Source of the DNA: Escherichia coli
GTDB taxonomy: Bacteria > Pseudomonadota > Gammaproteobacteria > Enterobacterales > Enterobacteriaceae
Reading direction: 5' to 3' (one strand)
Assembly: GCF_003334335.1 (NCBI RefSeq)
Contig: NZ_QOWQ01000016.1
Length of the DNA: 64,000 nucleotides
Below, in pieces: positions 58,392-58,523 of the stretch. Position 1 is the stretch's first letter. Every line of letters starts with the position of its first letter. Position numbers and translations under genes: made by a program. Below the pieces are notes generated by a model. It had not been told where the DNA came from. It saw only the letters and a list, made by a program, of their open reading frames with translations, and did no database searches.

Positions 58392-58425
58392 GGCATGCTT
58401 TTTACTTTTGCGTAAAAAGCATGCC
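58392..58425. other. Perfect 14-bp-stem hairpin just past the synteny breakpoint
   Basis: GGCATGCTTTTTAC-ttttgc-GTAAAAAGCATGCC; no adjacent T-tract. Confidence 0.6.
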
Positions 58426-58523
58426 TCTATCCATAAAATCAAATAGTTATAATCTAATTTTGGAGAATGTTTTTTTCAGCGCCCTTTGATCTGATCGCTG
58501 AAAAAACAACAAATAGTATAAAA

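Follow-up and report, generated by a model that had tools for sequence, protein, structure and literature searches.

The P arm of the phage lambda attachment site is arranged in the order P1-H1-[P2, Xis, Fis]-H2-core, and phage 21 and e14 integrate into the 3' end of icd, for which they carry a replacement end. In Escherichia coli O157:H7 Sakai, the prophage located at potC/potB is reported to be Sp6 (PMC8190617), for which attL x attR excision, circularization, and integration into K-12 at the same locus have been reported (PMC2669165). The locus described here is part of a stretch of E. coli DNA of 64,000 nucleotides (hereafter, the window), in which the host genes pepT, potA, and potB are followed by a junction with two nearby palindromes, named IR1 and IR2. 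The prophage that begins in the window is very probably a lambdoid prophage of the Sp6 family at this known potC/potB site, and both palindromes belong to its int-distal arm (Table 1). The locus adds to the Sp6 prophage family, at a known insertion site, a new and well-resolved attachment-site arm of the lambda type, and the finding is largely ordinary: an odd-looking junction is explained as the attachment-site arm of a widespread prophage family, which is mainly a matter of annotation tidying. The family, which includes O157:H7 members, carries cargo linked to virulence, for example espK or an S6-family autotransporter, and the base-level map of the arm, which resolves the core, the potB end, the IHF-type sites, and the arm-type site, could be useful for work on excision and integration and for prophage-boundary calling.

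Table 1. Features of the potB junction and the int-distal prophage arm, with window coordinates.
Feature	Coordinates	Strand	Basis or description
potB	57496..58359	+	ORF list; K-12 alignment; potB annotation in near-identical genomes
att core TGAATAAGAAGG, 12 bp	58328..58339	+	Both prophage ends aligned with K-12 attB
IHF-like site B ATTCAAAAAGTTA	58367..58379	+	12/13 match to WATCAANNNNTTR; predicted
Spacer between the two IHF-type sites, 57 bp	58380..58436		No indel in 23 distinct arms
IR1 (palindrome 1)	58392..58425		14-bp perfect stem, arms 58392-58405 and 58412-58425, 6-nt loop
IHF site A AATCAAATAGTTA	58437..58449	+	Perfect WATCAANNNNTTR match; predicted
Int arm-type site TTTTGGAGA	58458..58466	+	Repeat in both arms; predicted
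IR2 (palindrome 2)	58471..58506		Perfect 11-nt arms 58471-58481 and 58496-58506, 14 nt between
YkgJ-family cysteine-cluster gene, prophage cargo	58524..58826	+	PGAP in near-identical genome; alignment with K-12 YkgJ and prophage homologs
Terminator-like hairpin 3' of the YkgJ-like gene, T-rich tail	58954..58973	+	Consensus scan only

Alignment with the uninterrupted K-12 locus shows that identity to potB-potC stops at window position 58339/58340; the genes 5' of this junction were assigned from the ORF list and from the annotation of near-identical genomes. The 3' end of potB (58340-58359, with the stop codon at 58357-58359) is supplied by the prophage, so that the residues ATEIDD* replace the K-12 end VELE*. 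As with phage 21 and e14 in icd, integration takes place within a coding sequence and the phage arm restores an in-frame end and stop; in contrast to those elements, just seven codons (plus the stop) are replaced here, and an operon is split between potB and potC. The window stops before int, and the properties of Int and Xis were therefore taken from the near-identical genome JNEC-KY176 (contigs L001 and L004 are pieces of it), which is 99.6% identical to the window across the junction. In that genome, a lambdoid prophage of ~58 kb starts at the potB junction and runs through tail, head, lysis, and replication genes to xis, int, and finally potC. Its Int (L004 44132-45250) contains PF09003 (2e-21), the domain that binds arm DNA in lambda, along with the catalytic PF00589 (1.5e-18), and its Xis belongs to the lambda excisionase (Exc) family PF07825. 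Both palindromes lie within the first 170 bases of the prophage. In the lambda convention, the int-distal arm is the P arm and the junction is of the attR type. An initial annotation of the window had described pot DNA as meeting a new segment here and had considered the palindromes as possible recombination scars; the junction and the involvement of recombination hold, whereas the palindromes are parts of the phage arm rather than scars.

As a result of integration, potC and potD lie ~58 kb from the potA promoter. In K-12, the potB and potC coding sequences overlap by 4 bases; at the int-proximal end of the JNEC-KY176 prophage (L004 46000-46310, comprising the arm and the potC start), potC retains a ribosome-binding region made up of core and host DNA. 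Expression of potC in the lysogen would require an outward promoter in the int-proximal arm. Two further observations concern the JNEC-KY176 genome. An ompC porin gene (L004 3852-5006) is found within the tail cluster of the prophage, between the genes for minor tail protein L and a 'phage tail protein'. In addition, a satellite-like element with a cluster of integrase, DNA-primase, ProQ/FinO-like, and PerC-like genes is located upstream of roxA, in the interval from roxA to the next host genes (L001 636-7132), and this cluster may be the ~10.4-kb prophage found between roxA and phoQ of O157 genomes (PMC8190617).

The sequence TGAATAAGAAGG at the end of host identity recurs just before potC (L004 46289-46300) and has a single copy in K-12, at the potB/potC boundary; its presence at both prophage ends and once in K-12 therefore identifies it as the att core. 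In contigs with an intact attP, for example L018, where int and xis lie upstream, the same core connects the P' and P arms, and free-phage arms that are contiguous over the core (P' arm, core, P arm) were found in the viral contigs L018, L022, L026, and L033, all of which belong to family 2 (see below). Outward from the core, the int-distal arm comprises the substitute potB end, IHF-like site B, the spacer with IR1, IHF site A, the arm-type site, and, beyond the latter, a T-run (58470-58476) that is followed by IR2 and the cargo gene. Sites A and B were assigned with the IHF consensus WATCAANNNNTTR; perfect matches to it number seven on both strands of the 64-kb window, and the IHF-type and arm-type assignments combine consensus with position. 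The arm-type sequence TTTTGGAGA has one exact copy in the window, between the two palindromes. The int-proximal arm carries three tandem repeats 49-82 bp from the core, namely TTTTGGGGA (L004 46208), which is a 1-mismatch copy of TTTTGGAGA, and two copies of TTTTGGAGA itself (46221 and 46232). All arm-type repeats are located at most 130 bp from the core, and they occur nowhere else in the ~113 kb formed by the window and 49 kb of JNEC-KY176.

This organization resembles that of lambda attP/attR in several respects: (i) a tyrosine integrase with an arm-binding domain, encoded by a gene that overlaps the one for a lambda-family Xis; (ii) a short core at both prophage ends; (iii) tandem arm-type repeats in the int-proximal arm and one such site in the distal arm, ~120 bp from the core; and (iv) IHF-consensus sites that flank a segment of ~57 bp at the position of the lambda Xis/Fis/P2 region, where IR1 sits. 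It differs from lambda in the core and arm-type sequences, in having only one clear distal arm-type site, in the presence of a 14-bp perfect palindrome between the IHF sites with no recognizable direct Xis repeats, and in the location of the site inside the end of potB, for which it supplies substitute codons. Thus defined, the predicted arm displays every testable sequence-level feature by which a lambda-type attachment-site arm is recognized. By analogy with the lambda paradigm, IHF bends at sites A and B would let Int, with its N-terminal domain on TTTTGGAGA, reach the core.

The 184-bp arm is present in 684 of 5426 complete E. coli genomes (~13%), in 1-3 copies per genome and in a prophage-arm context at every locus inspected; ~99 fall at 90% identity or above and 586, including O157:H7 EDL933, at 80-90%. 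Sp6 of O157:H7 Sakai shares the insertion point and has the same arm at ~85% identity. In contrast to the window, the O157-type arm (the EDL933 copy, L008) has an internal T-C mismatch and a 4-nt loop in IR1 and lacks IR2, and the cargo there is espK, whereas the window prophage carries the YkgJ-like gene and an S6-family autotransporter. The conservation of individual sites was assessed in nine aligned BLAST-derived arm variants. Among these, the arm-type site TTTTGGAGA is invariant, and the substitutions in IHF site A affect only N positions and R (A/G). We also scanned viral contigs with a pattern composed of IHF site A and the arm-type site only, which returned 27 true arms and one chance match; the conservation of these two sites in the viral-contig set is partly by construction, as both formed the search pattern. 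IHF-like site B varies at its four N positions only, in every variant of the two arm families, and the T-run is conserved in both families although it lies outside the search pattern. Its length of 6-8 T among close relatives varies as expected for a slippage-prone homopolymer.

The arms split into two families, of which family 1 comprises the window-like or O157-like arms and family 2 represents a sister lineage. Family 2 has the core, the substitute-end block, the IHF-B motif, and the exact inter-IHF distance of family 1, and several of its contigs contain an intact attP with int and xis upstream. Comparison of the family-2 proteins with those of the window type gives 97% identity for Int and a single differing residue for Xis; however, the spacers of the two families are essentially unrelated (~26% identity of the consensuses by manual count). 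A scan of one genome per species with the pattern of IHF site A and the arm-type site gave 12 matches, all in unrelated phyla (Lachnospiraceae, Bacteroidetes, and others); these cross-species matches are due to chance, and no further diverged arms were gained.

Both palindromes are present where the initial annotation had located them, and they exceed chance expectation. The window has nine distinct loci with perfect inverted repeats of stem at least 11 and loop 3-20, where dinucleotide shuffles predict 0.53, and stems of at least 14 occur at three loci against none in the shuffles. The seven further perfect repeats in the window, with stems of 11-15 bp, are located at 40040-40075, 43029-43066, 54867-54891, 505-530, 32922-32947, 17096-17124, and 27771-27811, among them those at 40040 (15 bp) and 43029 (14 bp). 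IR1 begins 32 nt past the potB stop, in fair agreement with the distance of about 35 bp given originally. When folded as RNA, the segment 58380-58520 reaches -36.9 kcal/mol on the + strand (z -4.3) and -44.3 kcal/mol on the - strand (z -6.7), and on neither strand was any of 200 shuffles as good.

The stem pairs of IR1 were counted in 15 distinct family-1 arms, which represent few lineages: 10 of the 14 pairs are invariant, four vary on one side only, and compensatory double changes are found in none of the 14. The loop (58406-58411) is variable in five of its six columns and the stems in four of 28, while the arms diverge by ~15% overall. All nine distinct family-1 spacers fold strongly on the + strand (-16.5 to -24.3 kcal/mol, z -4.4 to -7.9), whereas the family-2 spacers (z +0.9 to -2.2) fold no better than shuffles. 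The perfect 14-bp stem is restricted to the subgroup of the window; in the O157-type, FORC82, and Stx1a-phage arms, one or two mismatches interrupt it. The eight arms with a mismatch at 58400/58417 are exactly the eight with A at 58411, which pairs with T58406 (T-A) and shortens the loop to 4 nt; this link between the mismatch and the extra loop-closing pair could reflect shared ancestry. The strong hairpin is a maintained property of family 1. It is not required for recombination, because the hairpin-less family 2 uses nearly the same Int and Xis. An Rfam search of 57400-59400 at a permissive E-value returned noise only (the sole hit, RsaJ, scored 16 bits with E 0.72, where the gathering score is 100), and literature searches on transcripts or promoters around espK and Sp6 turned up nothing relevant to IR1.

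A palindrome common to both families at one position was considered and rejected. The 6-bp GCCGTT/AACGGC repeat of family 2 is centered 2 bp from the IR1 center, but it is perfect in four of eight distinct arms, absent from the two most diverged ones, and folds no better than shuffles, and is thus not robust. A different strong G+C-rich hairpin, CCTCCCCGAC-N10-GTCGGGGAGG, without a clear T-tract, was observed in the family-2 contig L018 (4885-4915), just outside attP and ~60-90 bp past the arm-type site. IR1 and this hairpin show that each family has a stable stem-loop close to the int-distal end of the prophage, though not at the same place.

The ATG at 58524 marks the true start of the YkgJ-like gene, in line with K-12 YkgJ and the PGAP annotations, and IR2 lies 18-53 nt 5' of it; this palindrome, which the initial annotation had placed over an upstream in-frame ATG, overlaps no genuine start. 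The ATG at 58467 was rejected as a start codon, since the homologs begin at 58524 and the length of the downstream T-run (6-8 T) varies between relatives, so that a frame opened at 58467 would break. The GGAG before 58467 was likewise rejected as a Shine-Dalgarno sequence, being part of the invariant arm-type site and 2 nt from the ATG. Judged by these comparisons, the 19 codons that a start at 58467 would add are non-coding. The TATAAT at 58448-58453 coincides in part with IHF site A, and its -35 is poor. Within IR2, only the T-run and the A-run (58501-58506) are conserved, and the CAGCG/CGCTG half-sites contain one mismatch in PS2C, a bulge in 09A19, and are gone from the O157-type, FORC82, and Stx1a-phage arms. 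The region upstream of the chromosomal ykgJ gene of K-12, to which we turned for the same palindromes upstream of a ykgJ homolog, is unrelated in sequence and has no IR2-like element. IR2 probably represents a young palindrome that arose from the attP-edge T-run and the A-run of the cargo leader and has no conserved function.

The YkgJ-like protein of the window ends with …ACNRA (stop at 58824-58826), nine residues short of K-12 YkgJ and the prophage homologs (…ACNRARAKYGL..), and this early end resembles the outcome of a nonsense mutation from CGA to TGA. In strain 09A19CPO009, the gene carries a frameshift according to its annotation, and in O157-type arms the region upstream of espK replaces the YkgJ-like gene after ~10 codons. 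The cargo gene appears to be decaying or dispensable. Between it and the tail-fiber genes, the - strand of the window (59279-63304) encodes a further cargo protein, a SPATE-like S6-family autotransporter protease of 1341 aa with a GDSGSP motif, which in KY176 is followed by a YadA-C-terminal-domain protein.

As for the function of IR1, we tentatively favor, with slightly less than even confidence, a boundary RNA stem-loop without a U-tract that ends, pauses, attenuates, or 3'-stabilizes read-through transcripts. Such a stem-loop would act on potAB read-through in the lysogen and on int-side read-through in the circular phage and, because the palindrome folds on both strands, would also act on outward - strand transcripts. 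In agreement with this role, a strong hairpin located soon after the substitute potB stop is found in every family-1 variant, its loop varies while its stems change little, and the eight arms with a mismatch all gain the loop-closing pair. A scan of the + strand called no sigma-70-like promoter in the interval from potB to the YkgJ-like start; the cargo gene may therefore rely on read-through, which suits an attenuator better than a full stop. On the other hand, no T-tract follows the IR1 stem on either strand (the tails are TCTATCCA on the + strand and AAATTTGC on the - strand), the terminator scan called neither IR1 nor IR2, the stems are kept as sequence with no double changes, which would equally fit a protein site, and the 15 distinct family-1 arms come from few lineages. 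The RNA role of IR1 is the weak step of the whole explanation. Intrinsic terminators and REP-like 3' stabilizers share with IR1 a stable stem-loop soon after a stop codon that folds on both strands; IR1 differs from them in the lack of a U-tract, in its A/T-rich inner stem, and in not being a repeated genomic element. Because both a T-tract and compensatory changes are missing, IR1 is not supported as a canonical terminator, and the terminator suggested in the initial annotation gives way to a possible role as a non-canonical barrier or 3'-end hairpin. The combined proposal of a canonical intrinsic terminator of the pot transcript at IR1 and an operator over the YkgJ-like start at IR2 is accordingly very unlikely as a whole: it has in its favor the stable stem-loop past the potB stop and the perfect 11-bp repeat upstream of a gene, but neither stem is followed by a T-run, the IR2 half-sites are lost in most relatives, including even close ones, nothing alike precedes K-12 ykgJ, the repeat lies upstream of the true start, and no regulator gene is adjacent. 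A more elaborate version of the boundary stem-loop, which we consider improbable, places IR1 in a phage 'gene-end repair cassette' inside the sequence-free spacer of attP: upon integration, the phage would give potB its substitute codons, a stop, and a stem-loop without a U-tract, and would so provide a new potAB 3' end, gated read-through into the cargo, and a two-way insulator. If this were true, one DNA stretch would serve recombination geometry and RNA-level control together. The wider interest of the locus lies in this direction, namely that a length-constrained but sequence-free attP spacer possibly hosts a stable hairpin to control transcription at the prophage boundary.

The remaining readings of IR1 start from its place in the attachment site. 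It is conceivable, though rather unlikely, that IR1 has no function, that the spacer needs only length and bendability, and that the palindrome is a lineage-specific accident kept through limited divergence. The fixed length of a spacer whose sequence is unrelated between families sharing Int and Xis, the family-2 folds at the level of shuffles, the absence of compensatory changes, and the mismatches tolerated in the commonest sampled variant class all agree with such an accident; however, a 14-bp perfect palindrome is far beyond chance, and in arms with ~15% divergence the stems have changed much less than the loop, and all variants still fold at -16 kcal/mol or better. We regard as unlikely that IR1 is a protein site of the excisive intasome, bound as a dimer by Xis, Fis, a second Int arm domain, or a family-1-specific factor. 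Its position between the core-proximal and distal IHF-type sites recalls the Xis/Fis region of the lambda map, Xis belongs to the lambda Exc family, the stem sequences are conserved around a free center, and T-tracts recur about every 10 bp in the spacers of both families (by eye). A specific Xis or Int site was nevertheless rejected as the main reading, given that family 2, whose Xis and Int are nearly the same, has a spacer that is unrelated in sequence and forms no strong palindrome; in addition, an informal comparison by eye of IR1 and IR2 with the Fis, LexA, CRP, and Cra consensuses gave no convincing match. Hardly probable, finally, is a sib/tI-like retroregulator, in which int transcripts of the circular phage would cross attP and meet the hairpin, leading to processing and decay of the int mRNA, while in the prophage the hairpin would be parted from int. 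In intact attP, the int stop lies ~135 bp before the core and the IR1 position 53-86 bp beyond it, which makes the distance from int to IR1 comparable to that of lambda sib. However, the intact-attP contigs examined all belong to family 2 and are without the hairpin, whereas in window-type phage a stretch of ~1 kb, containing two convergent genes and a terminator-like hairpin, separates int from the core; furthermore, a stem of only 14 bp is short for RNase III, and a tI-type terminator would have a U-tract.

In addition to the junctions with potB, the same phage arm was observed joined, exactly at the core, to non-potB DNA in L007 (1354-1700), L009 (1357-1700), L013/L037, L017/L021/L038, L019/L020, and L039, where the joins read …CTACTG/AAGAAGG…, …CGGATAAGAAGG…, …CCGATAAGAAGG…, and …CAGATATGAAGG…. 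The partner in L007 and L009 is a truncated tail-fiber-assembly gene of another prophage, and L007 adjoins tRNA-Ser and hyaA. These joins suggest secondary attB sites or Int-mediated joining of prophages, with a minimal shared core of approximately AAGAAGG.
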